Shown in pieces: positions 1 to 60,811 of a stretch of DNA of 61,113 nucleotides. Under the pieces are notes generated by a model. It worked only from the letters and a program-made list of their open reading frames with translations. It was not told the DNA's origin and did no database searches. A program made the translations under genes and the position numbers. The number at the start of each line of letters is the position of its first letter. Within the stretch, counting starts at the first letter, position 1. Location of the stretch: the IMG/VR virus record IMGVR_UViG_3300032050_000141, positions 1 to 61,113 of that record; one strand, written 5' to 3'. The DNA comes from a virus. Taxonomy: Duplodnaviria; Caudoviricetes.

Positions 1-127
1 GCGCCGACATAGGCTGACAGCACGATTCCGCCCGGAATCACGATATCGGCCAACGCTCGACCCGGCAGGGAACCCGCCTTTTTCGGGACAGGAACCGTCC
101 GGGGATAGAATCCCGGCTTCCGGGAAC
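1..127 (+). repeat. Terminal direct repeat, left copy (probable assembler k-mer overlap)
   Basis: Identical to 60987-61113; 127 is a standard maximum k-mer; an ORF reads through it. Confidence 0.95.
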
Positions 128-251
128 ACCCCCGGGACTGCGCCGCTGCCACTTCTGCCCGCAGCCGGGCAATCTCTTGAAGCGCCGCGGCGTAGTCGGC
201 CGGATTGTGGGGAACCGGAGCCGCCGGGGCGGCATTGCTAACCCTTGCCAT
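1..251 (-). CDS. 5' part of a 141-aa hypothetical protein that wraps the circular junction (continues 60986 to 60812)
   Basis: Manual translation from ATG at 251 (GGAGG 8 nt upstream): MARVSNAAPAAP...LQEIARLRAEVAAAQ...GRALADIVIPGG, in frame with the listed ORF 60812..61039. Confidence 0.8.
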   Translation of the reverse strand, partial: MARVSNAAPAAPVPHNPADYAAALQEIARLRAEVAAAQSRGCSRKPGFYPRTVPVPKKAGSLPGRALADIVIPGGIVLSAYVG

Positions 252-296
252 TGCATCATCCTCCCGAAACACTCTGCGGTGGAAACAGCCGGCCAC

Positions 297-337
297 CGCT
301 CCGGCACAATGCTCTCGCCGGGGCGCCGCCAGCATGG
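297..337 (-). promoter_or_regulatory. Conserved early-gene hairpin element, copy A
   Basis: Core CGCCCCGGCGAG at 325-314, CCATG 12 nt upstream, stem cgccccggc/gccggagcg; precedes ATG 251. Confidence 0.7.
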
Positions 338-405
338 CGGATTGCCCACTAGCATTAGCCTAGTGCGGAATTGCCCGGAATAGGGCGATATGGCCACGAA
401 TGTAG

Positions 406-448
406 TGGCGTTGGGTCCGTGTTTGGGCCGTTTGTAGCGTTTGGCCCG
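406..448 (+). repeat. Degenerate GCGTTNGGYCCG repeats
   Basis: gcgttgggtccg 408-419, gtttgggccg 421-430, gcgtttggcccg 437-448; 14-mer 406-419 identical to 1424-1437. Confidence 0.55.
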
Positions 449-461
449 TATTTGACGGGTT

Positions 462-502
462 GCCATGAGCGCCATGGCCCGATTGCCGATGGCGCTCATG
501 GC
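462..502. other. Perfect 14-bp inverted repeat downstream of the 511..759 gene
   Basis: gccatgagcgccat / atggcgctcatggc. Confidence 0.7.
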
Positions 503-510
503 CCCTTGTG

Positions 511-759
511 TCAGCCCGCCTTGGCCCGCTTGGCCACCTTGGCCGTGATGGGCGTTGTCAGCCCGTCCGGCGTGGTAACCGTGACCGCCTTGATGTTGGC
601 GGGGTTGAACTTCCTCCCGTTGACGCTGAAGCCGCATCGCAGGAGTTGCTGGGCAATGCCGAACACGCGGTCACTGTGCCGCAGGTGAATGGCATACGGG
701 AACAGGCCGCGCTTGGGGACAATCGAGATGGTGGACATGTTGGTCACGATCGTGGACAT
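511..759 (-). CDS. Hypothetical basic early protein (82 aa)
   Basis: ATG 759 preceded by GGAGG; MSTIVTNM...KRAKAG. Confidence 0.75.
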   Translation of the reverse strand: MSTIVTNMSTISIVPKRGLFPYAIHLRHSDRVFGIAQQLLRCGFSVNGRKFNPANIKAVTVTTPDGLTTPITAKVAKRAKAG

Positions 760-798
760 GGGAACCTCCGTTGGGAAAGGGAATCGAACATCGAACGT

Positions 799-852
799 TA
801 GCCGGGACGCCGCCCCGGCAAGACACACTCGCCGGGGCGGCTTTGCCATGGG
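799..852 (-). promoter_or_regulatory. Conserved early-gene hairpin element, copy B
   Basis: Core at 839-828; 11-bp perfect stem gccgccccggc/gccggggcggc (809-841); precedes ATG 759. Confidence 0.75.
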
Positions 853-1212
853 CTATTGGCTATCGGCGTTGGCCGTGGTTTCGCCGGATGGCAACCACTG
901 GGAGCATCTGCGGAGAAACATGGAGCAGATGGGAAGGGCCTTGGTCAGCGGAACCCGGTGCGTCCAGCAATGACGCAACAGGTCAAACAGCAGAACCCTT
1001 GGGGCGTGGCATGAATCCCGGTCATGGGCATTGCAACGCTCAAGAGCCACCATTGCCCCGGTGTGATAGGCCGCCAACAGTTCCAGCATGGTTTCGACGT
1101 ACAAGTCTTCGCTGAACTTGTACGGCGTTTCGTTGTTGACCGGCCAATGCCCCTCTCCGTGCAACTCGGCATCGAGGCAAGAACCGTGATACAGCCTTTG
1201 AAACTCTGACAT
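853..1212 (-). CDS. Hypothetical early protein
   Basis: ATG 1212 after GGAGG; MSEFQRLYHG... Confidence 0.7.
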   Translation of the reverse strand: MSEFQRLYHGSCLDAELHGEGHWPVNNETPYKFSEDLYVETMLELLAAYHTGAMVALERCNAHDRDSCHAPRVLLFDLLRHCWTHRVPLTKALPICSMFLRRCSQWLPSGETTANADSQ

Positions 1213-1240
1213 ATCGACCTCCGTGGTAATAGACAACCGC

Positions 1241-1294
1241 TAGCCGGGACACGCCCCGGCCAACATGCTCTCGCCGGGGCGGCTTTGCCATGGG
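1241..1294 (-). promoter_or_regulatory. Conserved early-gene hairpin element, copy C
   Basis: Core at 1281-1270; shares tagccgggac and ctcgccggggcggctttgccatggg with copy B; precedes ATG 1212. Confidence 0.75.
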
Positions 1295-1377
1295 GCCCAT
1301 CAAAGACCTGTACCAGTAGCCCGGACCTGTAACTGGTACTGGTTCTTGACTCTGGACTGCGGCGATTGGCCGGTCGG

Positions 1378-1437
1378 GCGTTAGGCCCGCATGGGCGTTG
1401 GGCCCGTGGCCGCTTGGCCCGCATGGCGTTGGGTCCG
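1378..1437 (+). repeat. Four tandem degenerate 12-mers at 15-17 bp spacing at the divergence centre
   Basis: gcgttaggcccg 1378, gcgttgggcccg 1395, ccgcttggcccg 1410, gcgttgggtccg 1426. Confidence 0.65.
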
Positions 1438-1450
1438 CTATTGGCTATCG

Positions 1451-1509
1451 GCTATGGCCGAGGCGCCCCGGCGAGTGTGTCCCGGGGCCCGGCGCCGTGC
1501 CGGGGCCGC
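1451..1509 (+). promoter_or_regulatory. Conserved early-gene hairpin element, copy D
   Basis: ctatggccgagg-CGCCCCGGCGAG-tgt (core 1464-1475); precedes ATG 1534. Confidence 0.75.
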
Positions 1510-1533
1510 ATTGCGTCAATGGCGAGGGTTTCT

Positions 1534-1719
1534 ATGGTCTGGCGAATGGTCTTAACGACGGTGAGCCACGAAGGCATTGTGGCGGTGGCGATTCGCAGGT
1601 TTCCGACCAAGGCTATGGCCGAGGAGTGTGGGGAAACGGCGCTGGATGCAGTCAATCGGGAGTTCGTGAAGCACGCCGATTACGAGATCGAGCAAATCTC
1701 CGAGGAGGTGCCACGGTGA
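1534..1719 (+). CDS. Hypothetical protein (61 aa)
   Basis: ATG after GAGG; GTGA overlap with next gene. Confidence 0.65.
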   Translation: MVWRMVLTTVSHEGIVAVAIRRFPTKAMAEECGETALDAVNREFVKHADYEIEQISEEVPR

Positions 1720-1925
1720 ATTGCCCTTATTGCGGAAACGCAATTCCCAAGGAGCGGGTCAAGATTCTGCGGGCTACTGGACGGGCCATGTGCTGCGTCA
1801 AGTGTTCCGCCGAAACGCCCCGGTTAGTGCTGATGGAGTACGGGCACAAGACCGCTGGTTATGCGGTGATCGTGCCACGCGGGTCTGAGCAGCGTGCGTT
1901 GCGCTGCTACCGCAGGTCGCGTTAG
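1716..1925 (+). CDS. DksA/TraR-type C4 zinc-finger protein
   Basis: CPYCGNAIPKER...CVKC pattern; GAGGAGG upstream of GTG. Confidence 0.7.
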   Translation: MNCPYCGNAIPKERVKILRATGRAMCCVKCSAETPRLVLMEYGHKTAGYAVIVPRGSEQRALRCYRRSR

Positions 1926-1943
1926 TTCAGGGGAGTCTTTGAC

Positions 1944-2369
1944 ATGTTTGACCATCTGGTTCGGTTGGTGTTTCAGCGCTTGCTCACGGTCCGCCCCCTT
2001 CTGGAGGAGATCAAGGAGCAGCAGATCGAGGTTCGTCGCATGCCCATCGGTGCCGGCATGCCGCAGGAGTTCAATCGGGCCTTCGCCGGCTTGATGTGGA
2101 GCGTGGAGCGGCTGGGCATGCTGCTGAACGAGGAGGTGCCCATGGAGGACACCGAGGTGATGACCAATCCGATCGTGACGGGCTACATCGTGCAGTTCAC
2201 GCCGGAAGACAGCGAGTCCCATAGCACGCAGTTCGCTGGTCCGTTCCTTTCGCAGGAGGACGCCAAGGACTGGATCGAGAACAACCACTTTGGCGAGGGT
2301 TGTGACTATTACGGGACCACGCAGATCATCGAGATCAGCACCGATCCCAGCGAGATTGATGTTCGCTAA
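1944..2369 (+). CDS. Hypothetical acidic protein
   Basis: 141-aa ORF, GGGAG RBS. Confidence 0.7.
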   Translation: MFDHLVRLVFQRLLTVRPLLEEIKEQQIEVRRMPIGAGMPQEFNRAFAGLMWSVERLGMLLNEEVPMEDTEVMTNPIVTGYIVQFTPEDSESHSTQFAGPFLSQEDAKDWIENNHFGEGCDYYGTTQIIEISTDPSEIDVR

Positions 2370-2371
2370 TC

Positions 2372-2429
2372 GCTATGGCGGCGGCGCCCCGGCGAGTGTC
2401 CCCCGGGGCCCGGCAACGTCGCCGGGCCC
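2372..2429 (+). promoter_or_regulatory. Conserved early-gene hairpin element, copy E
   Basis: ctatggcggcgg-CGCCCCGGCGAG-tgt (core 2385-2396) then gggcccggc/gccgggccc; precedes ATG 2468. Confidence 0.75.
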
Positions 2430-2467
2430 ATTCCGGTTGATTCCCTTGTTTCAGGAGGTTCTTTCCC

Positions 2468-2842
2468 ATGTCCGATGACATTCTGGCCCGTTTGCGTGAG
2501 ATGGCTGGCAGTGCCGGTGAGCCCAAGGTGGAGGCGAAGCCCAAGGCCGTGGCGCCCAAGGCCGCGAAGCCGAAGGCAGAACCCGCCCCGGTGGCGGTGG
2601 TCGAGCCGGAACCCGTGACGGAGCCGGTCCCGGGTTTTGGTGTGGCGAAGTCCGCAGTTCTGGCACCGGTGGTGGTGCTGGACGATGGCACCACGTTCTC
2701 CAACCTGCGCGGTGCCAAGGTCTGCTGGGTTTCGCCCGATGCGGAGGAGATCGAGGAGTCCGACCTCGACTGCGGCATCGAGATCGGTGACCTGCTGACC
2801 CTGCGGGACGCGGTGCAGACCATCCTGCGGATCGTCGGCTGA
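2468..2842 (+). CDS. Hypothetical protein, Ala/Pro/Lys-rich N-terminus
   Basis: 124-aa ORF, AGGAGG RBS. Confidence 0.75.
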   Translation: MSDDILARLREMAGSAGEPKVEAKPKAVAPKAAKPKAEPAPVAVVEPEPVTEPVPGFGVAKSAVLAPVVVLDDGTTFSNLRGAKVCWVSPDAEEIEESDLDCGIEIGDLLTLRDAVQTILRIVG

Positions 2843-2867
2843 TACGTGAACGTCGGTGCATCTTGAC

Positions 2868-2915
2868 CGCCGGTGGCGAGTACGGGAGGCTCGCCACCGG
2901 CGTTTCCTTATTCTT
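2868..2915 (+). terminator. Intrinsic terminator-like hairpin
   Basis: 13-bp perfect stem cgccggtggcgag/ctcgccaccggcg followed by TTTCCTTATTCTT. Confidence 0.6.
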
Positions 2916-2918
2916 CCC

Positions 2919-3848
2919 ATGTCCCAAGAAAGGACTGTTCAAATGGCCAGTGGTCCCAATCCCAAGTCGGCCGTGATGATCGCCACCGTCGGGTGTGTGG
3001 CGTTCTGGACGGCGTTTCGTGTTCTGCGTCAGCGGGTGATCGACGCCTTGGCGAAGGTGGGCGTTACGGCAGTGCCGCCCATCGACTTCTATGACGCGCT
3101 TGTCGAAACCGGCAAGAACGTCATCGACGCCGCCAACCTGCGTCAGCGGAAGTGCCCCATCAAGCCCGACTCGCTGTCGCGGACTGGTGTGGGCGTGGAG
3201 TTCTATCAGACGTTCAAGGGCGACAAGCAGAACCAGCGTGAGTTCTTGTTCTCCCTCGGCGTGGATGACAAGAACACGGTGTTCGTGATTCAGGTCGGCG
3301 TGAACCCTGCGTTGCAGGCATTCTTCGCCAATCCGCAGGTCGATGCCATCCTGAACACGCTGTACCAGAAGCATCTGGAGTACATGCCCAGCCGGGATGT
3401 CACCGATGCTCTGGTTGGTCTGATCGCCAGCCAGAAGGGTATCCCAATGAAGCAGACCGGCGGGGTCTACTTCGTGCCTGACTGTGCTATCTCTGCCGTG
3501 GACTCTGTGTTCCACGACCTGAACGCCGCCGGTTGCCGCTGCACCCTGCTGAAGCAGGACTTGCGGAACAACCCGGAACTGGTGAAGCAGGTCTTGGAGG
3601 CCACCAACGATTCGCTGGTGGAGGAGTGCCAGAAGATGAACGATGTCATGCAGGACATCATCGACAATGACAAGGCTCCCCGTGCCAACGGCATGGCAAC
3701 GAGGATGCAGCAGTTGGGCGAGTTCGCCCGGCTCGCGGAGTATTACGAGGAGCAGTTCGGCACCAACTTGCAGGCCGCACGTTCCGCCCTGTCCAAGTCG
3801 TTTGAACTCATTGCGGAACTGCAAATCCGCAAGTCGGCCGGCAAGTGA
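2919..3848 (+). CDS. DUF6744/DUF3150-like protein (start 2919 or 2943)
   Basis: GGVYFVP motif, helical C-terminus, position upstream of AAA+VWA pair. Confidence 0.55.
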   Translation: MSQERTVQMASGPNPKSAVMIATVGCVAFWTAFRVLRQRVIDALAKVGVTAVPPIDFYDALVETGKNVIDAANLRQRKCPIKPDSLSRTGVGVEFYQTFKGDKQNQREFLFSLGVDDKNTVFVIQVGVNPALQAFFANPQVDAILNTLYQKHLEYMPSRDVTDALVGLIASQKGIPMKQTGGVYFVPDCAISAVDSVFHDLNAAGCRCTLLKQDLRNNPELVKQVLEATNDSLVEECQKMNDVMQDIIDNDKAPRANGMATRMQQLGEFARLAEYYEEQFGTNLQAARSALSKSFELIAELQIRKSAGK

Positions 3849-3860
3849 TGTTTCCCTATC

Positions 3861-3923
3861 GCTATGGGCGGCGGCGCCCCGGCGAGTGTCTTCCGGGCCC
3901 GGCACGGTGCCGGCCCGGCACGG
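3861..3923 (+). promoter_or_regulatory. Conserved early-gene hairpin element, copy F
   Basis: ctatgggcggcgg-CGCCCCGGCGAG-tgt (core 3875-3886); precedes ATG 3956. Confidence 0.75.
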
Positions 3924-3955
3924 TTCGGTTCTCTGTCAATGGGGAGTGATTTCAG

Positions 3956-5056
3956 ATGAGCAGTCTGTTGAATCTGCCGTACTACGTTGCGGCACAGGTT
4001 GGTGTACCGTCCATGGCGTGGGGCGGTACTGGTGTGGCGAAGACCGCCTCAATCGAGGCTTGTGCGGTGGCTGCGGGTAAGGTGTTCCACGCCTTCCTGC
4101 CCACCCACCACCTGCCCGAGGAGATGACCGGCATGCCGGCCGTCTACCGGGAGGAGAACATGGTGCGGATGGTTCCGCTGGACGAGATGCACGACCTGAC
4201 CCTTCCGGATCGGTGGTGGCATCTGGACGAGGCGAACACGGGTTCTTCGATGATGCGTGCCGTCACGCTGTCCATCGTGAACCCCACCGAGCGGCGTATC
4301 GGCCGGCTCACGTTCGCCCCGGACTTGATCGTGACCGCTGCCGCCAACCCGCCGGAGATCGCACCTAATGCGACCCCGTTTGAGGGTTCGGTGCTGAACC
4401 GGTTCTTCCACTGGAAGTGGGAGACTCCGGTGCAGGACTTCCTGACCGGGATCGAAACGGGTGTTTACCCGAAGCCGTCGATCCCCGTGGTCAAGAACAG
4501 CAGCATCGGTGAGATGGCATGGGGCCGCAAGATTCGGTTGTTCTTGGAGAGCAAGCCGGACTTCGTGGAAACCAAGCAGGTCGAGCCGGACGCCTTGTCG
4601 TTCCCCAGTCTGCGGCAGTGGGCCTACGTGAAGAAGGGCTGTGCTGGACTGGACTCGGTGGGTGCTGACCCCAAGGTCTACGTGAAGTTCGTCAGTGGCT
4701 GCGTCGGCCAGACCGCCGCGACCCTGTTCGTGCAGTTCGCACAGGCCATGGACTTGTACTCGGCCCGTGAGGTGATGGAGGGGAAGGCCACGGTCAACTT
4801 CAACGACAAGTTGGACCGGCTGTTCCAACTGCCGTCGGCACTCATCTTCCACGCCCAAATGGCGAAGGACGAGGGTGCCCTGACCGATGACATGGTGGAC
4901 CGTGCGTTCATCGTGTTGCTGACCCTTGGCGAGAAGGGCATGGTCGATGCGGTGAAGCAGCCGCTGTCCGCCATCGCCCTCATCAAGCCCGGCTACCGTC
5001 CGCCGCAGCAGTACCGTGAGCGGTTCGGTTCGCTGCTGTCGCAGATCATGGCTTGA
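3956..5056 (+). CDS. MoxR/dynein-related AAA+ ATPase
   Basis: Walker A GGTGVAKT, Walker B WHLDEAN, sensor AAANP, arginine finger NRF. Confidence 0.85.
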   Translation: MSSLLNLPYYVAAQVGVPSMAWGGTGVAKTASIEACAVAAGKVFHAFLPTHHLPEEMTGMPAVYREENMVRMVPLDEMHDLTLPDRWWHLDEANTGSSMMRAVTLSIVNPTERRIGRLTFAPDLIVTAAANPPEIAPNATPFEGSVLNRFFHWKWETPVQDFLTGIETGVYPKPSIPVVKNSSIGEMAWGRKIRLFLESKPDFVETKQVEPDALSFPSLRQWAYVKKGCAGLDSVGADPKVYVKFVSGCVGQTAATLFVQFAQAMDLYSAREVMEGKATVNFNDKLDRLFQLPSALIFHAQMAKDEGALTDDMVDRAFIVLLTLGEKGMVDAVKQPLSAIALIKPGYRPPQQYRERFGSLLSQIMA

Positions 5057-5079
5057 TTCTTCGTGTCGATTCACTCCCC

Positions 5080-5121
5080 GCCGTGGGGCGTAGTGGTGGA
5101 AACACCGCTGCGCCCCACGGC
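5080..5121 (+). other. Long intergenic RNA hairpin with GAAA tetraloop
   Basis: gccgtggggcgtagtggtg-GAAA-caccgctgcgccccacggc, with G-U pairs on + strand. Confidence 0.65.
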
Positions 5122-5148
5122 ACTCTCTAACGCAGAAAGGTTTCTCGC

Positions 5149-6504
5149 ATGCCGACGATTGCCAAACTGCCGCCGCATATCATCGCGGTGAGCAAGGCCA
5201 AGGAAATGGCCCAACAGTGGATGAAGTATCTCGGCGGGTATCTGGAGGGATGCCCGACCATCTTCGATTCCCGCGTCCCGACCATGGGCGTGGACTCCGA
5301 CGGCAGGTTGTACATCAACCCGCAGTGGGTGGATCAGTGGTCCGTGGAGCAGAATGCCTACGTTCTGCTGCACGAAATGTGCCACAACCTGCTGAACCAT
5401 GCGGAGCGCCGGTTGCAGGCCATCCCCAACGCCAACCCGCAGCAGTTGGAGTGTTGGAACGTGGCCGCAGACCTGTGCATTCAGCAGGTGCTGGAGGAAT
5501 GGGACCAGTACCGTCCGCGTCCATCCGTGGAGATTCGGGATTACGTTGGCGTCCCCGGCATGGTGCCCGGCCTCTCGACCGAGCGGTACTACGGAATCCT
5601 GTGGAACAACGGGAATCCGCAGCAGCCCAAGGGCAAGCAGCCCGGCGGCCAACCCGGCAATCAGCCCGGTCAGCCCGGTCAGGGTGGGCAGGATGACGAT
5701 GACCAGCAGCCCGGCAATGGCGGCAGTGGTGGCGGCACGCCAGTCCCGCCCAAGTCCAAGCAGCCACACGGTCAGTCCGGCTCCGCGTCCGATGGCGTGA
5801 AGCAGGACTACGAACTGGAGTCCGACCTGACCAGTACGGCCACCAACATGGCCAGACTGGAGGACGTTCGCCAGCAGATGGAGGACGATGGCAGCGTCGG
5901 CAAGGGCTCCGGCATGGGGCAACTGCGGCAGTCACTGAACGTGCGGCTCCGGCGTCAGCCCGATCCGTTCGACCAGTTGAAAGCCATCGTTGGCAAGGAA
6001 GTCTCCGCGACAGTGGGAGCGGACGAGTACACCTACCGTCGGCTGTCCCGCATGCAGCAGCATCCGGACCACCCGATGCGTGGCGTAATCAAGGTCAGCC
6101 CGGAGTGCGTCATTGTGCTGGACACATCTGGCTCAATGGGTGCCGGGCCACGGGGCGAACGTGTGTCCCGTGCGTTGACTGCCATTGCCCAAGGTGTGCG
6201 TCGGTTGCAGAACCCCCGCGTTATCTCATGGGACGATGGGCTGCGTGGCGACAAGCGGTGTGCAAGTATCCGGGATTTCCAGTGGGTTGGCGGTGGCGGC
6301 ACCGGCATGGAGGACGCCATCGAAATGGCCGACAAGAAGTACCGGCCGGATTGCATCGTGCTTGTCACGGACTGCGGTACGGGATGGCCGGAGAAGCCGA
6401 CCCGGGCCCGATTGGTTGTGGCTGCGGTGGCAATGGACACGAAGCCGCCGAAGTGGGCACGGGTTGTTGATCTCACGAAGGAGGTCAACGCTTATGTCGG
6501 TTGA
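5149..6504 (+). CDS. DUF2201-type metallopeptidase + VWA domain protein
   Basis: LLHEMCH (HExxH), WNVAADL, Q/G/P-rich linker, MIDAS VLDTSGSM, GGGGT, VTD. Confidence 0.85.
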   Translation: MPTIAKLPPHIIAVSKAKEMAQQWMKYLGGYLEGCPTIFDSRVPTMGVDSDGRLYINPQWVDQWSVEQNAYVLLHEMCHNLLNHAERRLQAIPNANPQQLECWNVAADLCIQQVLEEWDQYRPRPSVEIRDYVGVPGMVPGLSTERYYGILWNNGNPQQPKGKQPGGQPGNQPGQPGQGGQDDDDQQPGNGGSGGGTPVPPKSKQPHGQSGSASDGVKQDYELESDLTSTATNMARLEDVRQQMEDDGSVGKGSGMGQLRQSLNVRLRRQPDPFDQLKAIVGKEVSATVGADEYTYRRLSRMQQHPDHPMRGVIKVSPECVIVLDTSGSMGAGPRGERVSRALTAIAQGVRRLQNPRVISWDDGLRGDKRCASIRDFQWVGGGGTGMEDAIEMADKKYRPDCIVLVTDCGTGWPEKPTRARLVVAAVAMDTKPPKWARVVDLTKEVNAYVG

Positions 6505-6567
6505 TGAAGTCGCGTTCTTGATAGCACTCATTGGCATTGGCTTGTATCTCACAAACGGGAGGCCAAG

Positions 6568-6990
6568 GTGACGAAGAAAGCAGAGTACGTGGTTCGCAAT
6601 GCTCTCCGTGACTGGCGTAGCAGAGCGAACCAGATGGTTCGGAACTGCCTGCGAAGGCTACGAAAGGAGGGGATCACGCCAACGCAGCCGGGCGTCAATG
6701 ATTATCTCGCGGCTACCGAAACCGTGGAGATGTATTTGCGAACGGAACTGCACGATCTCGTAGCAGAGTGGGAGCAGAAGCGGTCCAACTACGAACCGCT
6801 GTTCTCGATGCCGCCGGCTCGGCGTAAGACGGCGGCACCAGCGAAACCCCTAACGCTGGTCGAGCGTAGGGCAGTGGCCGCAAAGGCCAAGGTTGTTCAG
6901 TGGCAGCGCAAGCAGAAACTTGCGGCCACGAAGGTACGGCAGTACCGCAAGAAGGTTTCCTACTACACCAAGAAAGGTGTGATCCGATGA
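6568..6990 (+). CDS. Hypothetical basic protein
   Basis: 140-aa ORF, GGAGG upstream. Confidence 0.7.
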   Translation: MTKKAEYVVRNALRDWRSRANQMVRNCLRRLRKEGITPTQPGVNDYLAATETVEMYLRTELHDLVAEWEQKRSNYEPLFSMPPARRKTAAPAKPLTLVERRAVAAKAKVVQWQRKQKLAATKVRQYRKKVSYYTKKGVIR

Positions 6991-8108
6991 GCCTCATGTA
7001 CCGTGTTCAGCCCGCAGTCTCTGTGCTAGTGGGCCGCCCCAAGACGGACCCGCAGATCGTCAGTCCGCAGAACTTTCTCACTAACTTCGGGCTGCATCAG
7101 TCAAAGCCCGAGTCGGAGCAGGCTCTGCGACAGTGCCCGGAACTTGTGCGTCTGGCTATTGCCTCCCACTATACATGGTGGTTCTTGGCACGGGCCCACT
7201 CGGCAGTGGTTCGCACGTTCGCCCATGCTTTCATGGCGGCGTGCAAGTCTCCGTGTGTTGCCATTTGTCAGGCATATAGCCCGGAAATCAACAACGGTCT
7301 GGCGGGAGCCGGCATCGTTTGCAATTCCCGTGGCTACGGCAATGCGGTTTACCCCGTCATGGCGTACCGAGTGCTGCATTTCTTTGGCCGGTACCTGCAA
7401 GATGCCGGGGCCAATGGGCCCAACGCCAACCTCATGCAGAAGAAAGACTGGGCGGCTTGGCTGCGTCCCGGTATGCGTGCCTACTCTGACCACCGTGGAA
7501 CGCAACACGACATGGCAGTGGGCACGGTCGGCAAAGTTGATATGGACGATTACGATACGGCAGACCGGGAGGGTGTTCTGGTTCGCTCGTCCGCCTCACG
7601 GTGGAAAGCGTACAAACACGGTGCTATCACTGCCCTGCAACCGTTCTTCTCTGGCGAACTGGTGCCGGCCGGGTATGACATGACCCCGTTCACCGGGTTC
7701 ACTATGTTCCGGGCGTGCGAGGTTCCCAAGTTGTGGATTCAGAAGCCCCGGTCCAAGCGACTGGTTGCCATGATCCCACGGTGCCTTGCATACGGGATGG
7801 AGCAGGTCGGTGAGGAACTGCCTTACGCCGTGCGGTACGTGCATGAGAGCGATGCGTGGAACCGTGCGGTGAGGAAGCAAATCAACCACTACATCGAGAA
7901 CCGCGAGCATGCCGCAATGATCGCCATGTCCAAGCGGGACTCGATCGTGGCGTGGCTCAACCAGTACGACGCGATTGCCACAGTCCACTATGCCATGCCG
8001 CAGGTGGAGGGGCGGAACGTGTGCATGGATGAGTCCAACATCGAGTTCACTGCGGCGAAGGAAGTCCACTTGCAGTTCCCCGGCCTGTGCGAAAACAACC
8101 TCGGATAA
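6987..8108 (+). CDS. Hypothetical protein
   Basis: Long ORF, ATGA coupling at 6987. Confidence 0.75.
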   Translation: MSLMYRVQPAVSVLVGRPKTDPQIVSPQNFLTNFGLHQSKPESEQALRQCPELVRLAIASHYTWWFLARAHSAVVRTFAHAFMAACKSPCVAICQAYSPEINNGLAGAGIVCNSRGYGNAVYPVMAYRVLHFFGRYLQDAGANGPNANLMQKKDWAAWLRPGMRAYSDHRGTQHDMAVGTVGKVDMDDYDTADREGVLVRSSASRWKAYKHGAITALQPFFSGELVPAGYDMTPFTGFTMFRACEVPKLWIQKPRSKRLVAMIPRCLAYGMEQVGEELPYAVRYVHESDAWNRAVRKQINHYIENREHAAMIAMSKRDSIVAWLNQYDAIATVHYAMPQVEGRNVCMDESNIEFTAAKEVHLQFPGLCENNLG

Positions 8109-8119
8109 GGAGCAGACCC

Positions 8120-9142
8120 ATGCAGTTCAACGATTACCTCACCCACTACCAACTGGCGAAGGCCGGGGAAATGGGCAATGACTTTGCGAGAGGGTTGCGG
8201 AACATCACGCCACGGGAGTTCTTCGTGGGGTACGTGCATCGGCTGGACGAAATCAGCCGGGCAAAGTTCGGCAAACCCATCGAGCAGGTTGACCCATTTA
8301 CCCCGGCCATGCTGACTATGGAAACGGAGTGGCATGAAGCCGGTCGGCCTTACTACAACCTGTGGCCCAGCATCATTCCGGCGTTGACCAAACTCCACAT
8401 GGACGCGGACTCATCGTTCTTCCGTCTGCCGCTGGATCAACTGCTGATTCGACTCCCCGTCAATGACAACTCGCTGTCGTGGGAGTGGCAGGGAAAACCC
8501 TACAGCGTTAGGGCCGTTCTCTGTGGCAACGTGCAGTTGATTACCGAAGTCAACGGCAAGGCAATGTCAGGGTGGGCTGGCAAGCAAGATCCTGCGTTGA
8601 TGAAGCGTGGCATCGCAATGTGGATCGACGCCCACGAACCACTGCCAGATGCCTATGCTGGGCTCGCCTCAAACAGGCTGCACCGCATGATGTACAAGCA
8701 TGTCGTGTGCGAGGAGGGAAAGTCCATCGAGTGGTCGTTTGACAACATCCCCGCTCACGATTCGGCGGACGTTGGCGTCAACTACCCTGACCAAGTGGTG
8801 CGGGACGTTGCCCGCATCGTGTGTACTCTCTGCCTCATGGCCGAGGACAAAGATTTGGTCGAGCCTATTGTGTTGCGGTCAGACGAGGATAAGTTTGATC
8901 GCACTGGCGACCTTGGGCTGGTGACCAAGGCCATCCGTCGCGGCAACTACGGATTCAACGTGGGCCGCAACATCGAGTGCGTTCCGCATGTTCGTTCTGC
9001 ATCGCCCGCCGCCCTGTACTGGACGGGTCCGGGCCGCAAAGTTCCTCGCATTCGGTTCCGCCGTGGAACCGTGGTTCATCGTAAGCGGTTGGCGTCGGTG
9101 CCGACCGGGTTCCTTGACATGGAGAAGGGAGAGTCGCAATGA
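8120..9142 (+). CDS. Conserved phage hypothetical protein
   Basis: TAAGGAG RBS; C-terminal PHVR...YWTGPGR..PRIR motif seen in many phage early proteins. Confidence 0.75.
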   Translation: MQFNDYLTHYQLAKAGEMGNDFARGLRNITPREFFVGYVHRLDEISRAKFGKPIEQVDPFTPAMLTMETEWHEAGRPYYNLWPSIIPALTKLHMDADSSFFRLPLDQLLIRLPVNDNSLSWEWQGKPYSVRAVLCGNVQLITEVNGKAMSGWAGKQDPALMKRGIAMWIDAHEPLPDAYAGLASNRLHRMMYKHVVCEEGKSIEWSFDNIPAHDSADVGVNYPDQVVRDVARIVCTLCLMAEDKDLVEPIVLRSDEDKFDRTGDLGLVTKAIRRGNYGFNVGRNIECVPHVRSASPAALYWTGPGRKVPRIRFRRGTVVHRKRLASVPTGFLDMEKGESQ

Positions 9143-9501
9143 AGCGTCGTTGTTTGGTCAGTAAAGAGGTGGAGTACACGGACAACAAGGCCGGCGAGTT
9201 GCTGGCGTTGATGCGTGCCGGGTTCAACGTGCAGTGGCTGGACGGGGGCGTGCCCCGGCCGCTGATGCCGGTCATCCCGGCGGCTCGCCCCTCTAGTAAT
9301 GGAGAGGCGACGATCGAGCGGCGGCAGCGTCGGGGCCGGAGGCGGGTCAACCTCACGCCGCAGGAGGTCACCGAACTGGTGGCCCTGCGGAAGAAGGGCT
9401 GCGCCACCCGGACGTTGGCGAGGAAGTTCAAGATGAGCGTGAGCGGCGTGCGTAACGCCCTGCATCGTGCCACCAAGGGGAAGGGAGGGGAGTCCGAGTG
9501 A
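9139..9501 (+). CDS. Helix-turn-helix DNA-binding protein
   Basis: LTPQEVTELVALRKKG..TRTLARKFKMSVSGVRNAL. Confidence 0.7.
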   Translation: MKRRCLVSKEVEYTDNKAGELLALMRAGFNVQWLDGGVPRPLMPVIPAARPSSNGEATIERRQRRGRRRVNLTPQEVTELVALRKKGCATRTLARKFKMSVSGVRNALHRATKGKGGESE

Positions 9502-9836
9502 AGCCTGCCGTCGAGCGTGTGACTGGATTGTTCCACGGGCTGTCGGCGCGTGAGTTGGCATTGCTAACTCACGTTGCCCGCAGCATCGAGGCAACAGGGG
9601 TCCAGCCTACGTACCGTGACATCCAGAAGTTCATGGGCTACAAGTCCACGAACTCTGTCATGTCTATCATCCAGCGCCTCTTAATGCGGGGAGTGATATG
9701 GGAGACTACTGGTCACGGCTTCGCGTTCGACTGGAAGGCGTACCTTGGGGCTGCGAAATGCGGGACTGTGAGAGGGAAACGATCCGCGTCCTTGAGCAAA
9801 TCGCTACCCGAGAGGTGCGTGGCAGAAGGACGCTGA
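9498..9836 (+). CDS. LexA-like winged-helix DNA-binding protein (no peptidase domain)
   Basis: GVQPTYRDIQKFMGYKSTNSVMSIIQRLLMRGVI matches LexA N-domain pattern. Confidence 0.75.
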   Translation: MKPAVERVTGLFHGLSARELALLTHVARSIEATGVQPTYRDIQKFMGYKSTNSVMSIIQRLLMRGVIWETTGHGFAFDWKAYLGAAKCGTVRGKRSASLSKSLPERCVAEGR

Positions 9837-10156
9837 CCACTGACCAGTGCCGGGACTTGTGCCGCATGTACGAGGCCGACCCTCTGTACGTGAGGTACGT
9901 GTTCCCGAAGGATTTGCAGCAGGCGTTGGGGCTGTACGGAAACCGGAAGCGGAACGTGCAGATGAATGCCCTGCTAATTTCCTACCTGTTCCGTGCGGCA
10001 GAGGGTTTGGTCGCACTGAACGTGGGCAGGAAGATGGCGTTTGGGCTGTTGGCCATGCTGGATTTCGATACCCGGGCGCGTGCCCTACGGATGGCCGGCA
10101 AGTGGAGAAGGCAAAGGGAGAGAGAACGCGATGAGCAAGAGGAGGGCGGCAGGTAA
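9758..10156 (+). CDS. Hypothetical protein
   Basis: ORF in coupled gene string. Confidence 0.55.
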   Translation: MRDCERETIRVLEQIATREVRGRRTLTTDQCRDLCRMYEADPLYVRYVFPKDLQQALGLYGNRKRNVQMNALLISYLFRAAEGLVALNVGRKMAFGLLAMLDFDTRARALRMAGKWRRQRERERDEQEEGGR

Positions 10157-10400
10157 GAAGGCAAGGCCACAGGCCATGCCGTTCTTTAACCTGCGGCTGA
10201 ATGAGGAAGACCTGTCGCACCTGCGATGGCTCTTGGAGGGGGACTGCCAGATGAACCGCGAGTTCATGCAGGAACCCATCAAGGGGAAGAAGTCGCTGGA
10301 GGATTGGGTCATAGCCCGGGACATGCTGTGCTACAGCGCCCGGGTCATCGCCATGATCGACAAGGTGTGCCCGCAGATTGCGAAGCGGGCAGCGAAGTGA
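10131..10400 (+). CDS. Hypothetical protein
   Basis: ORF MSKRRAAGKK..., followed by terminator. Confidence 0.6.
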   Translation: MSKRRAAGKKARPQAMPFFNLRLNEEDLSHLRWLLEGDCQMNREFMQEPIKGKKSLEDWVIARDMLCYSARVIAMIDKVCPQIAKRAAK

Positions 10401-10409
10401 TGAGCAATC

Positions 10410-10452
10410 GGGGCGGGGGTCACGATGGCGTGGCTCCCGCCCCTTTCTTTTT
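10410..10452 (+). terminator. Rho-independent terminator
   Basis: ggggcgggggtcacg/cgtggctcccgcccc stem followed by TTTCTTTTT. Confidence 0.8.
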
Positions 10453-10473
10453 CCCCAACTAAAGGAGAGTCCG

Positions 10474-11241
10474 ATGAGCCGGGCGTTTCTTTACGGCAGA
10501 CACAGCACCGACAAGCAGGAGTTGACGGAGGATGTCCAGCGTGACCTGTGCATGCGGTACTTCAAGCAGGAGTTGGAGCCGGATGGCGTGACGCTGGCGC
10601 CGCCCGGCTGGTTCTACGATGAGGCACTGACTTCAGCCATTATGTTCGGGGAGCGGGAGCAGGGGCGTATCGTCCTCGCTTCGCTCCAGCCGGGCGACCA
10701 TTTGGTGGTGGCGAAGTGGCATCGGCCGTTCCGTTCTGTCAGGGACGGGGAGAATACGCTGCACCAGTTGTCCCTGCGGAACGTGCAGTTCCATGCGGTG
10801 GACTTTCCCATCGACACGACCAAGGCCCACGGCAGGTTTGTGCGTCGGGTGACGATGGCGGCTGACCAGTTGTGGCGTGAGGTTTCGCAGGAGTCGGTGC
10901 GGGAAACGATTGCCTACCGCAAGTCGCTCGGCCTGCCGTTCAGCCGGGGCGTGCCGATTGGATGGAAGGCAGTCGGTCGCCGGCCCCGGCGGGTATTCAA
11001 GGTAGACATGCAGGAGCGGGCACTGGCCGACCACATCTGTCGGCTCTATGCTGGCGGCATGTCGATGGAAGCCATCGCACTGTGGGGTTATTCGCAAACC
11101 CAGTTCCCCAACAAGCGGCAGTTCAAGAGCCGGGAGGCTGTGAAGTGGGTCATCAACGCCCACTCCACCGGGTTCCCGAAGATCACTGGGTACAAGACCC
11201 TGCGTCGGGCAATCAAACTAGGGCAGATTGGACTCTGCTGA
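10474..11241 (+). CDS. Serine recombinase (resolvase domain plus short recombinase-like C-terminus)
   Basis: YGRHSTDKQ catalytic motif, GDHLVVAKWHRPFRS, PIGW; AAGGAG RBS. Confidence 0.8.
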   Translation: MSRAFLYGRHSTDKQELTEDVQRDLCMRYFKQELEPDGVTLAPPGWFYDEALTSAIMFGEREQGRIVLASLQPGDHLVVAKWHRPFRSVRDGENTLHQLSLRNVQFHAVDFPIDTTKAHGRFVRRVTMAADQLWREVSQESVRETIAYRKSLGLPFSRGVPIGWKAVGRRPRRVFKVDMQERALADHICRLYAGGMSMEAIALWGYSQTQFPNKRQFKSREAVKWVINAHSTGFPKITGYKTLRRAIKLGQIGLC

Positions 11242-11739
11242 TCGAAGCCTGTCGATAGCCTCACGCACCCGCTTGGCTATGGTCCGTGGGTCAAGCCCTT
11301 GCTCCAGACCCAGTTGCTCTAACGTCACTGCCTCAATGAGCCGGTCTTCTAACAGCGTCCGATCGTAGGCAGACAACATGCGGATTGCCTTGAGAGCCCG
11401 CATTTCCTGACGGGTTCTGTGCCCTGCCGGCTCGGGGTCCAGAATCTTCTCGACCGTCACGTACCTCCCGTCCTGCCTCGCCTGCGTCAGCACCTCCCGG
11501 TACAAAGCGTGCCGTATTGCAGACCCGAAGTAGGTTGTTGGCTGGGACTTCTCTGGCTTATACGTGGTCGCCGCCATGACGATGGCGTGCATGGCCACGC
11601 TCTCCAAGTCCACCCGCCTCGCACTCTGGCGTAGGTCCGGGTTCCTCTTGAGGAACGATGCTATTGCCGGCTTGCAGAACCGCAGGCTTTCTTCCGCCAT
11701 GCGCTGCTGTGCTGCCGTCAGTCGCCGGCGTTTTCTCAT
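11218..11739 (-). CDS. Sigma-70-like factor (region 2 + region 4 HTH)
   Basis: DLESVAMHAIVMAATTYKPEKSQPTTY...IRHAL and TLEQLGLEQGLDPRTIAKRVREAIDRLR. Confidence 0.75.
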   Translation of the reverse strand: MRKRRRLTAAQQRMAEESLRFCKPAIASFLKRNPDLRQSARRVDLESVAMHAIVMAATTYKPEKSQPTTYFGSAIRHALYREVLTQARQDGRYVTVEKILDPEPAGHRTRQEMRALKAIRMLSAYDRTLLEDRLIEAVTLEQLGLEQGLDPRTIAKRVREAIDRLRSAESNLP

Positions 11740-11993
11740 TTATCGTTGGAGAGTCTGATGAGCGTGTCCAGTTTCTCCCCGATGTTCACTAACTCATTGG
11801 CCTGCCGCTCTTGGGCATTGGTGATCTTCTGCACCACCGAGAAGTGGGCGTCGAGCAGTGGCTGCACAACGTCGTGCTTCGCCCAGTACAGGACGAACAG
11901 CAGCACCACCACCGGGATGCCGAAGCGTTCCGCTACCCGGTAAAAGAACTCCCAGTGCGGAGTTACCGGGGGGTGGTCGCCGGCAGCGGGCAC
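11736..11993 (-). CDS. Holin-like membrane protein (start uncertain)
   Basis: RFGIPVVVLLFVLYW TM segment then coiled-coil; nearest canonical start GTG 11993. Confidence 0.55.
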   Translation of the reverse strand: MPAAGDHPPVTPHWEFFYRVAERFGIPVVVLLFVLYWAKHDVVQPLLDAHFSVVQKITNAQERQANELVNIGEKLDTLIRLSNDK

Positions 11994-12163
11994 TTGCCCG
12001 TGGTACACGCCGGCGCTGGCGGTGCCTGCACCTGCTGTTTGGAAGGAGAGGGTTGGGGCTCCGGCTTCGGACGAGTGGATGCCGCTATGCCCGCTTGAAC
12101 CGCCATGTCGATCTGCCATGCCAGCACCACCAGTTGAAGGAGAACCAAGCCAAACCGTTTCAT
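11963..12163 (-). CDS. Small secreted/membrane protein with CTTGKCP motif
   Basis: MKRFGLVLLQLVVLAW signal; ATGA coupling. Confidence 0.65.
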   Translation of the reverse strand: MKRFGLVLLQLVVLAWQIDMAVQAGIAASTRPKPEPQPSPSKQQVQAPPAPACTTGKCPLPATTPR

Positions 12164-20912: not shown

Positions 20913-21064
20913 GACTTGCTCTCCTTGAGTGCCTGTTCAGTCGGGGCCCCCTTCGATCCGGGCCTCCGCATTTTCTCTCCAGAACCCTTGGCGATCCGTT
21001 CTCGTTTGGCGTGAATGTTCGCCCACAAGCCCGGCTTTCGGAGTTTACGTATGGTGTCGCTCAT
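20909..21064 (-). CDS. Widespread small basic phage protein (51 aa; not in ORF track)
   Basis: Manual translation MSDTIRKLRKPGLWANIHAKRERIAKGSGEKMRRPGSKGAPTEQALKESKS. Confidence 0.75.
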   Translation of the reverse strand: MSDTIRKLRKPGLWANIHAKRERIAKGSGEKMRRPGSKGAPTEQALKESKS

Positions 21065-24000
21065 TGTCCGAATGGTCCCAGTGCCATGAGTTGCCGCATC
21101 CGCTCTTGTCTTCGCTGACGATCCCGCAGTTTCAGTGCTTCTTCAGCCTTCTCCTGCGATAGTGCATACAGTTTGCGATCCCGTGGCGTCATCGTCGGCT
21201 GCAATGCCTCGGGGATATACGCCTTCTGGAACGTGTACGTGATCGGGTCGAGTTCGCGTCCGATCTGACGCTGGATGTCGTTGAGTTCCTGCGCGGCGGC
21301 CTGCGTGTTGACCTTAAATCCGGTGGACACGTTGAGCCCGGCCTTGGCGAGGCGAGCCCCAAAACTCTCGATACGCGGGTCTGCCAGCGTGCCGGCAAAC
21401 GCCATCGGCACCTGCGTTCCGGGGATGAGTCCGGCCAAAACCTTGGCCGCCGGCGAAAGTCCTCGCGGGTCGCCGGTTGCGGCGGTGTACACACGATCTG
21501 CGGGCGTCGTTGTTTCGTCCAGCGGACGGTCGAAGAACAGGTCGCGGCCGGTAGCCAAGGACATGAACCCCTGAAGCGGCGGTGCCATCTGGCTGGCGAG
21601 ATTGTTGACAGTACCCTGCACGCCGTATGGGTCGAACAAATTCAGAACGTCGATGCCGGGCAGGTCGATGTCCGTGATGTAATGCTTCGTGTCTGGCTGC
21701 GTCAGCCCGAGCATGTCCGTGAGGGCGTCGGGCATGCGGACAGCGAACTTCTGCCGCAGTTGCTCCGTGATGTAGTTGTCCTCGTCCGACTCCTGAATCG
21801 TGTTGCTGGCCCGGATCATCTGGCCATACGCACCACCCGGACGCTCCATCAGCGACTCGATAGCGTACTTCCCGATGCGGCTGTTATAAGCCCACCACGG
21901 GAAGATCGTTCTCATCCACTTGCGTTCAGTAAGGGTAAGAGACTGATAATCTACGAGCGCCCGCTTTACCCTATCCGCAGCCTCGGCTGGACTAACGCCC
22001 TGCTGAAGCAGATGAATAAAAGTCCCGAGCCTTCCCACAGAGTCCACGGTGTCGTTGATTGTGGAACTTGCCCGCAGGATGGGGTTCTGCGTGTCGTACT
22101 GGTCGGTCACCCCATAGATAGAGCCGAAGTTCTTGATGCGTTGGGACAGCGGGGTCGTGGCGTCTGGCACCAGTTCGGCCAAACCCTTGCCTACGGAGAT
22201 GGGTGTCGAGCCCGGGATCAACTGGCCCATCTCGCCGGACCGGGCGCTTGACAGGAGTTCGCTGGACTGGAGCCCCGACAGCACGCCGTTGCCGCCGACA
22301 TCCATGATGAACGCGTCTTTGACGGCATCGTCCGCCAGACCGGAATAACGCGGAATCGAACGAAGCGCCTGCATCGCTCCGGCGTAGTCACCGTTGACGA
22401 TCTTGCTGGCGTTCCACATCGCCGCCAGTTGCTTCGGCCCATTTCCTGTTTCAAGAAACCCGCTGACAGCGTTACTGTAGGCATCTCTGACAAAGCGCCG
22501 TGGGGTTGCGAGGACGAATCCCTTAAACAGTTTCGTCCATCCATCAAGGAACCCGGCGACTTCCTTCTGTGCCGCAGGGGCAGCATAGAAGTCCGCGACC
22601 TTTTGGAGCCGGCGAACCACCCGCTCTGGCACAGAGTATTTCGACAGGTCGATCTGGTCTGGCGCAACGCCAGTAGACTTGCTGATGGCGTTCTTCAACG
22701 CCATCGCGGCTTCGTCCTTCACCTTGCCGTCGCCGCTCTGGAACCCTGCCCTTGTTCCGATCTCGTCCCACGACTCTGCGAGGTTGCGATACCGGCCGAC
22801 TTGCTGGGTCTTTGCTCCCTCGACCGCAGCCTCTGACAGGGATTCCAACAGGAAGATAGCCCGAGACTTGTTAACTTCGTGGCCGATGATGCGGCGAGCC
22901 TGCGTGTTGGCCGGGTGGGCCGCAAACACCGGCGTTCCTTCAGGCAAGTCTTGGGCACGCCGCACCATGGTGCGGGCAATCTTTAGAACCTGCGCGTTCG
23001 GCCCGTTGATGACTGTGTTGTTCGGTCCGGGCCGGGCCACCGGATTGCCGATGGCTTCGGTCGGATACTTGTTCTTGAACCAGTCCATGATGACGGTCGC
23101 GGCTTGATCGTCCGTCACGCCGGAGTTGGGCTTGGAATACTCGATGATCTCTGGAAGCAGGCTGATCTGCCGCAGGTCATCGGTGCCGCCCGGAGTCTTC
23201 AGGTAGTCTCGCCTGCCGTAAGCCTCGGCCTCGCTGGCGTCATACAAGAGCCGGCCGGTCCCTTGTTCGGCTTCGTCAAACGTGAACTCGTCGCCGTATC
23301 GGGGGTTGTATTTGGTGCCGTACTCGTCCTTGTAGAAGTTGCCGGTCAGCCCCATGGCATTGCGTTCTGCAAACTGCCGGTTACTGATCTGCTCCCACGA
23401 ATTGAGCCACGGCTGGAGCCCCGGCGTCATGGCGAGAATTTGTTTGTCCGTTGCTGTACCGTGCCCCTCGACAAGCCTCACCAGCATGTCGTTCCCTTGC
23501 GGACTAAAGAGCGTTTCCGCCCCCAGTAGGCCCTTTGCTGCGGGCGGCAGGGCAATCTTTGTCAGCAGCAGGTTGTGTCGCGTGGCTTCTGTCTGGCCGC
23601 GAACCCGATACATGTCTTCCAGCGTGTTGGCCCGGAGTGCAGCAATCTGTTCGCCGGTGTCCACTGCCCCGCCGCTGGCCTTGGAGAACAGGCCGGTAGC
23701 GAGCCGGCCGGGGTAGGAGAAGCGAGCGCGGGCGCCAAGGTAATCCATGGCGTCCATCACTTTGCCTGCGCCGGGCGGCGTGAAGGCCATGTTGACCGGC
23801 CCGACGTTCAGTCCGAACATCCCGCCAAGCGTCTGATCTTTGAGCCTTTGGTATTCCTGAACGCTACCGAGTTTCGTCGTGACATTCCGCAGAGCCTCTG
23901 CCGGGTCCGAGGATGCGTTGACAACATCCTCCAGCGTGACCTTGCTTTGGGCCAGCCGCTGTCCGACGGGCGTGACCGCTTGATAATTTCCCGATGTCTT

Positions 24001-43402: not shown

Positions 43403-43547
43403 GGCAGTGGTCTACACAGACGCGGCGATTGCTGTTGCATATCTCGCATCTACCGTTGTTTCTGGACGCAATCCGGTCGAATGCGGCCTGACTAATCCGG
43501 TAGCGGCTCCAGAAATTGTGCCACCGCTTCCGTTGTTTGGCGTCCAC
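42975..43547 (-). CDS. Endonuclease VII-family (homing-type) nuclease
   Basis: RYRI...GRCEIC...VDHCHETNVIRGLLCTGCNAALARFGDN...AVRYL. Confidence 0.9.
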   Translation of the reverse strand: MDAKQRKRWHNFWSRYRISQAAFDRIASRNNGRCEICNSNRRVCVDHCHETNVIRGLLCTGCNAALARFGDNLAGLLRAVRYLKAHARRNSRKHRSRRQGCAGEVFAYAVRRTDAEVRGDVRPPTAARSQGNGPGVNAGKNQSRVAGRYAQGSRGPHPARGTGIRYQRKWSVLHERARRQAWPPRPGRMG

Positions 43548-60005: not shown

Positions 60006-60025
60006 GGCACGTGGGGTACGTGGGG
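60006..60025 (+). repeat. 20-bp direct repeat, copy 1
   Basis: ggcacgtggggtacgtgggg, identical to 60430-60449. Confidence 0.9.
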
Positions 60026-60722: not shown

Positions 60723-60766
60723 AAAATGAAACCGGGCCCGGCAGGGTTTCCCCCACCGGGCCCGGT
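60723..60766 (-). terminator. Rho-independent terminator closing the leftward early unit
   Basis: accgggcccggtggggGAAAccctgccgggcccggt followed by TTCATTTT. Confidence 0.7.
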
Positions 60767-60811
60767 CGATCGACCCCGGGCATCATGCCCGGTCCGGCAC
60801 GGTGCCGGGAA

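Follow-up and report, generated by a model that had tools for sequence, protein, structure and literature searches.

Phage early promoter families with extended conservation include the T4 early promoters, T7 A1-A3, the promoters of T7 RNA polymerase (RNAP) and the phiC31 early promoters. Lambda nut, HK022 put and the BglG-type ribonucleic antiterminator (RAT)-terminator modules form another set of described systems, and morons are promoter-gene-terminator cassettes of lambdoid phages. The virion RNAP of N4 uses a hairpin promoter with a 5-7-bp stem and a 3-nt loop. RNase III sites of the T7 type consist of about two turns of duplex RNA, and attC sites have a tyrosine integron integrase nearby and bipartite R/L core sites. 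According to PMC9283540, the stoperators of cluster A mycobacteriophages (L5 gp71 type) are asymmetric 13-bp sites that lie in promoter and short intergenic regions and are oriented with transcription. Here we describe a repeated element at the heads of early genes in the IMG/VR virus record IMGVR_UViG_3300032050_000141, a member of an almost entirely dark phage lineage; the window analysed is this entire record of 61,113 bp. A dedicated cis-element system had been proposed in a first-pass annotation of this DNA, and our analysis supports that proposal: the element is a real, lineage-specific cis-regulatory header that stands at the heads of early transcription units.

The core of the element, CGCCCCGGCGAG, has exactly six matches in the whole genome, all inside 297-3923. 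The six positions listed in the first-pass annotation proved exact, and neither the exact scan nor the profile scan added a seventh. With its flanks the element takes the form CYATGS-N6-CGCCCCGGCGAG-WG, about 26 bases. When one mismatch was allowed, 8 matches were obtained against 1.56 expected, a number reached by none of 100 shuffles; of the two extra matches, one falls on the arm of copy 2 that is complementary to the core (811-822) and the other lies in coding sequence (24603). The core also holds the commonest 11-mer of the genome.

As had been claimed, all six copies fall between genes and read in the same sense as the gene that follows, at a nearly fixed distance from its start codon. 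The end of the core precedes the start codon by 62, 68, 57, 58, 71 and 69 nt in copies 1-6, and these start codons carry a GGAGG-type ribosome site. Copy 5 starts 3 nt past the stop codon of gene F. CYATG begins 12 nt before the core, or 13 nt before it in the case of copy 6, and the core is followed by (T/A)G in 6/6 copies, again in agreement with the earlier description. The spacer between CYATGS and the core is 6 nt in 10 of the 11 copies from the window (six) and its close relative (five). Copy 6 has 7 nt, but a metagenome variant that lacks its spacer base 3872 has the 6-nt spacing again. Similarity extends over 45-67 nt among the plus-arm copies and over 57 nt on the minus arm. The copies point outward, as first noted, from the only strand switch of the genome: leftward genes run from 1212 over the ends of the record to about 11218 and rightward genes from 1534 to 11241, with 1213-1533 as the single divergent control region. 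Genes were called as those open reading frames (ORFs) that have a GGAGG-type ribosome site. An inverted repeat of 42 nt (79%; 822-863 versus 1440-1481), which includes GCTATTGGCTAT and a TGTGTC loop, links copies 2 and 4. Copy 2 with its cassette B has the look of a duplicated and inverted copy 4 header.

Outside the lineage, the extended motif was found in IMG/VR in one methyltransferase gene family and one further contig only. In the 15-mer scan of IMG/VR, each of the 80 loci listed, out of at least 118 matching stretches, contained one match. In unrelated IMG/VR phages (L171-L181, L185; for example L175 2401-2460), the extended motif lies within a C5 DNA methyltransferase gene, in a stretch that codes for TPWPSRPGEQQ(F/Y)(A/E)WEPPRV, is identical to copy 3 in 27/29 nt and reads the core as the codons R-P-G-E. 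This likeness is either a coincidence of preferred codons or a sign that the element derives from such a gene fragment.

Three lineages of relatives were recovered, labelled here 89%, 78% and 36%, where 89% is the identity of the ATPase encoded behind copy 6. Searches with this ATPase and protein H, as single sequences and as alignments, yielded only two close relatives and a single 78% relative from IMG/VR, two 78%-type contigs in metagenomes and one 36% relative in a metagenome-assembled genome (MAG); the other 400 sampled genomes of the order of that MAG gave no match. The element profile picked out exactly six sites in the window and five in the close relative; the 78% and 36% relatives had none. 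The 89% relatives keep the core at five orthologous or equivalent positions, one of them with C to G at the first base, and carry one further chance copy of the core inside a structural gene, where it codes for KRPGEL. The loop sequence is common to the copies of one arm within a genome but differs between the window and the close relative, which suggests that the copies within a genome evolve in concert. In the 78% relative, two orthologous right-arm genes are preceded by a 17-mer of its own, GGGTCGGCAAGTGCCGG, which shares with the core of the window only CGGC(R)AGTG and differs at three bases of the supposed 5' arm (CCC to GGT) with no compensation. Its left arm has a window-like copy, CCATGG-N9-CCCCGGCG, with a perfect TTGACA 14 nt upstream. 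The 36% relative has a 20-mer of its own, present exactly twice in divergent orientation, which heads both arms and is followed each time by a small hairpin. In the 78% and 36% relatives, different motifs thus stand at matching sites: what is conserved is the position, and each lineage has its own sequence.

The element marks the 5' boundary of the early units on both arms, and a terminator often marks the end of the unit. Gene content varies between these boundaries. None of the three relatives has a counterpart of gene B, C or D, and gene A is common to the closest only; E, G, H, I and J are shared. In a close relative, an unrelated gene replaces C behind the same header, and the 89% relative lacks both gene B and copy 2 and has E and F in swapped order. 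Within metagenomes, a contig joining 770 to 1238 has cassette C removed and another joining 1531 to 1812 has gene D removed. Given the pattern of header, gene and terminator and the gain and loss at the elements, the early region is a string of header-gene-terminator cassettes (Table 1). Exchange of genes at the motif had been anticipated, and gain, loss and replacement were all seen when the relatives were compared. It resembles that of morons in that small accessory genes with their own header, and often their own terminator, are variably present between close relatives. It differs from them in that one identical header stands on all cassettes, so that exchange is possible through the header itself.

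Table 1. Positions of the header copies, terminators and neighbouring repeats in the window
Feature	Position	Strand	Details
Copy 1, heads gene A (start 251)	275..337	-	CCATGC 337-332, core 325-314, GC hairpins to 275
Copy 2, heads gene B (start 759)	796..851	-	CCATGG 851-846, core 839-828, perfect 9-12-bp hairpin with 819-811
Copy 3, heads gene C (start 1212)	1238..1293	-	CCATGG 1293-1288, core 1281-1270, 9-bp hairpin and overlapping second hairpin
Copy 4, heads genes D-E-F (start 1534)	1452..1507	+	CTATGG 1452-1457, core 1464-1475, GC hairpins to 1507
Copy 5, heads gene G (start 2468)	2373..2428	+	CTATGG 2373-2378, core 2385-2396, GC hairpins to 2428
Copy 6, heads ATPase gene (start 3956)	3862..3916	+	CTATGG 3862-3867, 7-nt spacer, core 3875-3886, GC hairpins to 3916
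Divergent control region between copies 3 and 4	1294..1451		GTACCAGT/ACTGGTAC inverted repeat and four GTTGGGYCCG-like repeats
Second GTTGGGYCCG-like cluster, upstream of copy 1	400..450	+	GTTGGGYCCG-like repeats
Hairpin directly 3' of gene B, then copy 1 heading gene A	468..505	-	14-bp stem, no T run, likely terminator; read from the sequence
Terminator after gene G	2868..2902	+	canonical intrinsic; stem covaries, loop conserved in relatives
Two hairpins after gene A	60730..60810	-	second: 11-bp stem and TTTCATTTT, canonical terminator

The exchange junctions do not fall at a single fixed crossover point. One metagenome contig of 1379 nt (run X9), whose flanks are identical to the window, joins 1260 to 1482 via 13 other bases; the 221-bp divergent region is gone from it and the loop of copy 3 is flipped, and no other contig of the run covers 1261-1481. 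This join may be a true deletion variant or a chimera formed at the hairpin. The canonical terminator after gene A closes the leftward early block. At the terminator between G and H (2843-2942; L125 6885-6986; L127 788-914), the stems covary fully and the loop T(A/G)(T)CGGGAG is conserved, and a conserved ACGTCGGTGCAnCTTGACCGC box precedes this terminator in the window and in the 89% relative.

In the window from 1 to 12000, no sigma-70 consensus promoter was found against 2.8 expected. TAnnnT is absent on both strands of 1213-1533, 2370-2467 and 3849-3955; for 1213-1533 the count of 0 against 1.7 expected is not a significant depletion. No -35 common to the copies appeared in their alignment. 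A sigma-70-type promoter was rejected for the element, as the hexamers TTGACA and TAnnnT were not found 16-18 nt apart, and the spacings of sigma-54, extracytoplasmic function (ECF) and FliA-type promoters gave no fit by eye. A leader peptide was also considered, with the ATG of CYATGS in frame with the core in 10/11 copies (MxxxPRR...), and was rejected: one copy has ATT and one is out of frame, ribosome sites are lacking, the peptides that follow are not related to one another and synonymous sites show no variation.

No phage RNAP or sigma family was recognised by Pfam and/or PHROGs in 50 stretches (49 ORFs, with gene A as two pieces), a very divergent enzyme being conceivable. The PDB sequence search with the three largest dark ORFs, of 1171, 891 and 722 amino acids (aa), gave no match, the scan for the DxDGD motif gave none, and the Atlas comparison returned no polymerase or sigma factor. 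The earlier statement that no phage RNAP is evident thus stood in all of these searches.

Copies 3 and 4 stand back to back in the sole divergent intergenic region, so two promoters are needed within 1213-1533. Apart from the loose GTTGGGYCCG-like repeats, the header is the only repeated, oriented and position-fixed signal there, which leads to the reading as a non-canonical promoter. We therefore tentatively favour, at a little under even probability, a phage-lineage-specific promoter header of small early units, possibly with an overlapping operator, that would be used by the host polymerase in a manner other than that of sigma-70. The host RNAP would read the element through a contact of non-sigma-70 type or through a further host or phage factor. 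CYATGS, in which A and T are nearly invariant, may be a -10-like melting element, the GC-rich 6-nt spacer may be a discriminator, and transcription would start at or beside the first bases of the core. This would give every early mRNA a common 5' end of 12-14 nt followed by GC hairpins, in a leader of 70-83 nt, and this common leader might add stability or offer a shared regulatory handle. The identical repeats may in addition serve as substrates of homologous recombination, which would give gain, loss and replacement of cassettes exactly at the elements. Like the known early promoter families, the headers are many near-identical sense copies before early genes or small operons, are lineage-specific and are conserved well past a host consensus. 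Unlike them, they show no recognisable -35/-10 and no cognate polymerase or sigma factor, and their most conserved block lies downstream of the putative -10.

Several observations weigh against a promoter header. CYATGS lacks the T at the last position of the sigma-70 -10, the copies have no -35 in common, and no phage RNAP or sigma factor was found that could be the reading enzyme. The 12 invariant bases past the putative -10 go beyond the need of an ordinary promoter. Gene H has no element, though it lies behind a strong terminator. Two copies in a close relative have hairpins ending in T5 within 20-45 nt downstream, so that transcripts begun at the element would stop there unless the hairpins were overridden. 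Finally, the one metagenome contig without 1261-1481 has lost the CYATGS boxes of both copy 3 and copy 4; if it comes from a viable phage, the CYATGS box is dispensable there.

The first-pass annotation had also described the core as the 5' arm and loop of a stem-loop whose pairing is kept in every copy. A complementary stretch can be drawn after the core in all six, but the claim as stated is supported only in part. When the duplex between the core and its downstream stretch was compared with 500 dinucleotide shuffles, the fraction was at or below 0.02 only in copies 2 (0.000) and 3 (0.018) and in the orthologue of copy 3; it was 0.31, 0.23, 0.57 and 0.97 in copies 1, 4, 5 and 6. The z-scores of 60-nt folds were -0.46, -3.43, -1.26, -0.53, -1.52 and -0.28 for copies 1-6 (mean -1.25). 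Those of the antisense folds were -1.35, -2.45, -2.16, -0.80, -1.47 and -1.07 (mean -1.55), and strand bias was absent. RNAalifold on the 11 copies of the window and the relative gave only a trivial 3-bp helix inside the core with 0 compensatory pairs, the 5' arm being invariant in these genomes. The complementarity after the cores is largely a chance outcome of GC-rich, CCGG-rich sequence, and the linear DNA sequence with its spacing is the conserved unit; a hairpin as that unit is not supported. Some of the hairpins farther downstream are real, namely the one after copy 1 and the terminator between G and H. The stem GCGGTGG/CCACCGC downstream of copy 1 becomes GCGGTCG/CGACCGC in the relative, with one compensatory G-C to C-G change, and the hairpin downstream of copy 3 is retained there in a shifted register. 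At the gathering score, Rfam gave 0 matches for the whole window, in line with the earlier statement that no named element was recognised; for 1-4200 a single unrelated match of E 3.6 was obtained.

These hairpins bear on a group of readings in which the core acts in the transcript or as single-stranded DNA. It is possible, though unlikely, that the core is an RNA leader signal, nut/put-like or RAT-like, that acts on the GC hairpin downstream, or a 5' stabiliser or processing signal of each cistron. Behind every copy lie GC hairpins, one or two in number, whose tail is somewhat rich in T; two of those in the relative are canonical terminators, one with an 11-bp stem and T5 ahead of the ATPase gene and one with a T5 tail ahead of gene A. 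There is overlap between the core complement and the 5' arm of the second hairpin, which is full in copies 2 and 3. The compensatory change after copy 1, the shifted but kept hairpin after copy 3 and the joint stability of the six 60-nt folds relative to shuffles also speak for an RNA role, and copies at the heads of both arms recall nutL/nutR and putL/putR. On the other hand, pairing of the core exceeds shuffles in only 2/6 copies, consensus structure and covariation are lacking for the core hairpin, and the antisense strand folds equally. A simple terminator scan was passed by only 1/6 of the window copies, and in the 78% relative the 5' arm changed from CCC to GGT with no compensation while CGGC(R)AGTG stayed. 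Like nut, put and RAT modules, the headers are sense-strand elements that stand close to where both divergent arms begin and immediately ahead of terminator-like hairpins, with a core complement that partly overlaps the next hairpin. They differ in having six copies instead of two, no boxA/boxB similarity and no N-, Q- or BglG-like protein, or other antiterminator-like protein, among the recognised products. Their hairpin is statistically unsupported in most copies, and no Rfam family matches. In a form that we consider rather improbable, the headers would be a phage-encoded attenuation network in which the core competes with the following GC hairpin or terminator or recruits a factor against it. 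By analogy with ops/RfaH, one phage or host factor reading CGCCCCGGCGAG in RNA or non-template DNA would switch all early cassettes jointly; this would account both for the lack of sigma-70 promoters and for the hairpins resembling terminators that directly follow the copies of the relative. Processing of the T7 RNase III type, which had been listed as a candidate role, does not fit stems of only 5-12 bp where a duplex of about 20 bp is needed. The hairpin or single-strand promoter of N4 or Frpo type had been another candidate, and we regard it as very improbable that an unrecognised virion-delivered or phage polymerase reads the copies in this way. The lack of a sigma-70-type signal, the inverted repeats at every copy, the large dark proteins of 1171, 891, 722 and 1724 aa with no family assignment and the phage's own single-stranded DNA-binding protein (SSB) are what such a system might show, and N4 promoters likewise are conserved inverted repeats ahead of early genes that lack sigma-70-type promoters. 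However, the loops here measure 10-14 nt instead of 3, 4/6 copies have a weak hairpin, the copies lie on both strands, and no polymerase motif, family match or giant virion polymerase was found. The 1171-aa protein is like LPD38 polyvalent proteins, and the 1724-aa protein matches virion structural families.

A reading at the DNA level, to which we give a low probability, is that the element is operator- or stoperator-like, an asymmetric core of 12-14 bp bound by a phage repressor as a monomer or through two domains. By analogy with the mycobacteriophage sites, initiation would be blocked at the two copies of the divergent region and elongation, in an orientation-dependent way, at the four copies in short gaps. 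The exact asymmetric 12-mer is conserved far past the need of a promoter, and all six copies run in the direction of transcription and sit in a promoter region or in short spaces between genes, like L5-type sites as PMC9283540 describes them. The consensus also differs between related phages in both systems, and the wholesale replacement of the motif in distant relatives is what immunity specificity would produce. Candidate binders are a LexA-like winged-helix protein (9498-9836) and an HTH_32 protein (9139-9501), the latter diverging faster than most of its neighbours (66/45/32%); no homologue of a two-domain immunity repressor was recognised in the window. Yet the sites number only 6, within 4 kb, where L5 has more than 20 across its genome, and a 13-bp site does not explain the 45-67-nt block of the plus arm with its fixed CYATGS box; the longer module here also includes downstream hairpins. 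Lysogeny is unsupported: the recombinase is a small resolvase-type protein of 287 aa, and neither the genome-collection scan nor 401 genomes of one order held a prophage relative (1 match, already known). The recombinase enters again in the proposal that recombination is the primary role, with attC-like cassette boundaries and the serine recombinase (10378-11241) as the enzyme, which we hold to be extremely improbable. Cassette differences do map to the elements, and the loop sequence shared within a genome and arm points to concerted evolution. However, no integron integrase and no attC architecture or core sites were found at the copies, the only recombinase is the serine resolvase-type one, and the junctions vary in their crossover point. 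The strict co-orientation with genes and the fixed distance to the start codon point to expression. The part assigned to the serine recombinase found no support either: homologous recombination between identical repeats of 12-45 nt suffices, and an ERF-type annealase and a PD-(D/E)XK nuclease acting on them explain the exchange with no dedicated site.

Other repeats lie close to the headers. The clusters of iteron-like repeats resembling GTTGGGYCCG at 400-450 and 1378-1437 (plus), upstream of copies 1 and 4, hold all 3 exact copies of that repeat, and clusters occur also in a relative (L125 ~5000-5060, 5620-5665). The genome count of 15 against 17.6 expected is not above chance and only the clustering is notable; the clusters are candidate regulator or origin sites. 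The sequence CACGTACCCCACGTGCC occurs twice exactly on the minus strand (60006-60022 and 60430-60446), where it heads the next two leftward units past the terminator of gene A, and its count was reached by 0/100 shuffles. It may be a different class of promoter or regulator site. The 330-nt non-coding stretch around it is, by eye, partly alike in the relative (L125 ~4140-4200). Protein E (1716-1925) has 69 aa with four cysteines and is conserved in the 89% and 78% relatives; it may be a factor that binds RNAP. A TraR/DksA-like factor was rejected, as the best PDB match, a TraR zinc finger, was non-significant (E 0.3) and Pfam gave no support.

The remainder of the genome gives the setting. The record has a terminal repeat of 127 bp, and the tailed-phage assembly is circular in effect. 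Products were assigned for the portal (43547-45568), large terminase (45877-47568) and major head protein (48776-49942), and also for a helicase and an HNH nuclease besides the annealase, nuclease and SSB named above; most ORFs scanned had no family match in Pfam/PHROGs. Near-identical DNA was found in metagenome runs of 13 studies, the majority labelled freshwater. The Atlas comparison gave no clue to the host, and BLAST of the window from 1 to 8000 against phage records gave no match. The 1171-aa ORF (21061-24576) has no Pfam, PHROG or PDB match, and it showed likeness to clusters with LPD38, a domain of large phage polyvalent proteins (Atlas 0.95, 166 shared features). Tandem direct repeats in ORF-dense late-gene DNA (51675-51916 and 54067-54404, with spacings of 66-72 nt and 108-210 nt) probably encode repeated protein domains.

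In conclusion, we found that the early units of this phage, from an almost entirely dark lineage, are arranged as cassettes behind one conserved header. This header gives a handle on early transcription and on the factor that reads it, and may reveal a non-canonical type of promoter in an uncultured host. If it is a strong early promoter, it would be a portable expression signal. Should it prove to be a site of repression or elongation control instead, the stoperator principle would apply outside the actinobacteriophages as well, and an attenuation network, if true, would be a multi-copy, cassette-portable antitermination or elongation-control signal unprecedented in phages. The early region also provides a clean natural case of accessory early genes that are shuffled as header-gene-terminator cassettes.

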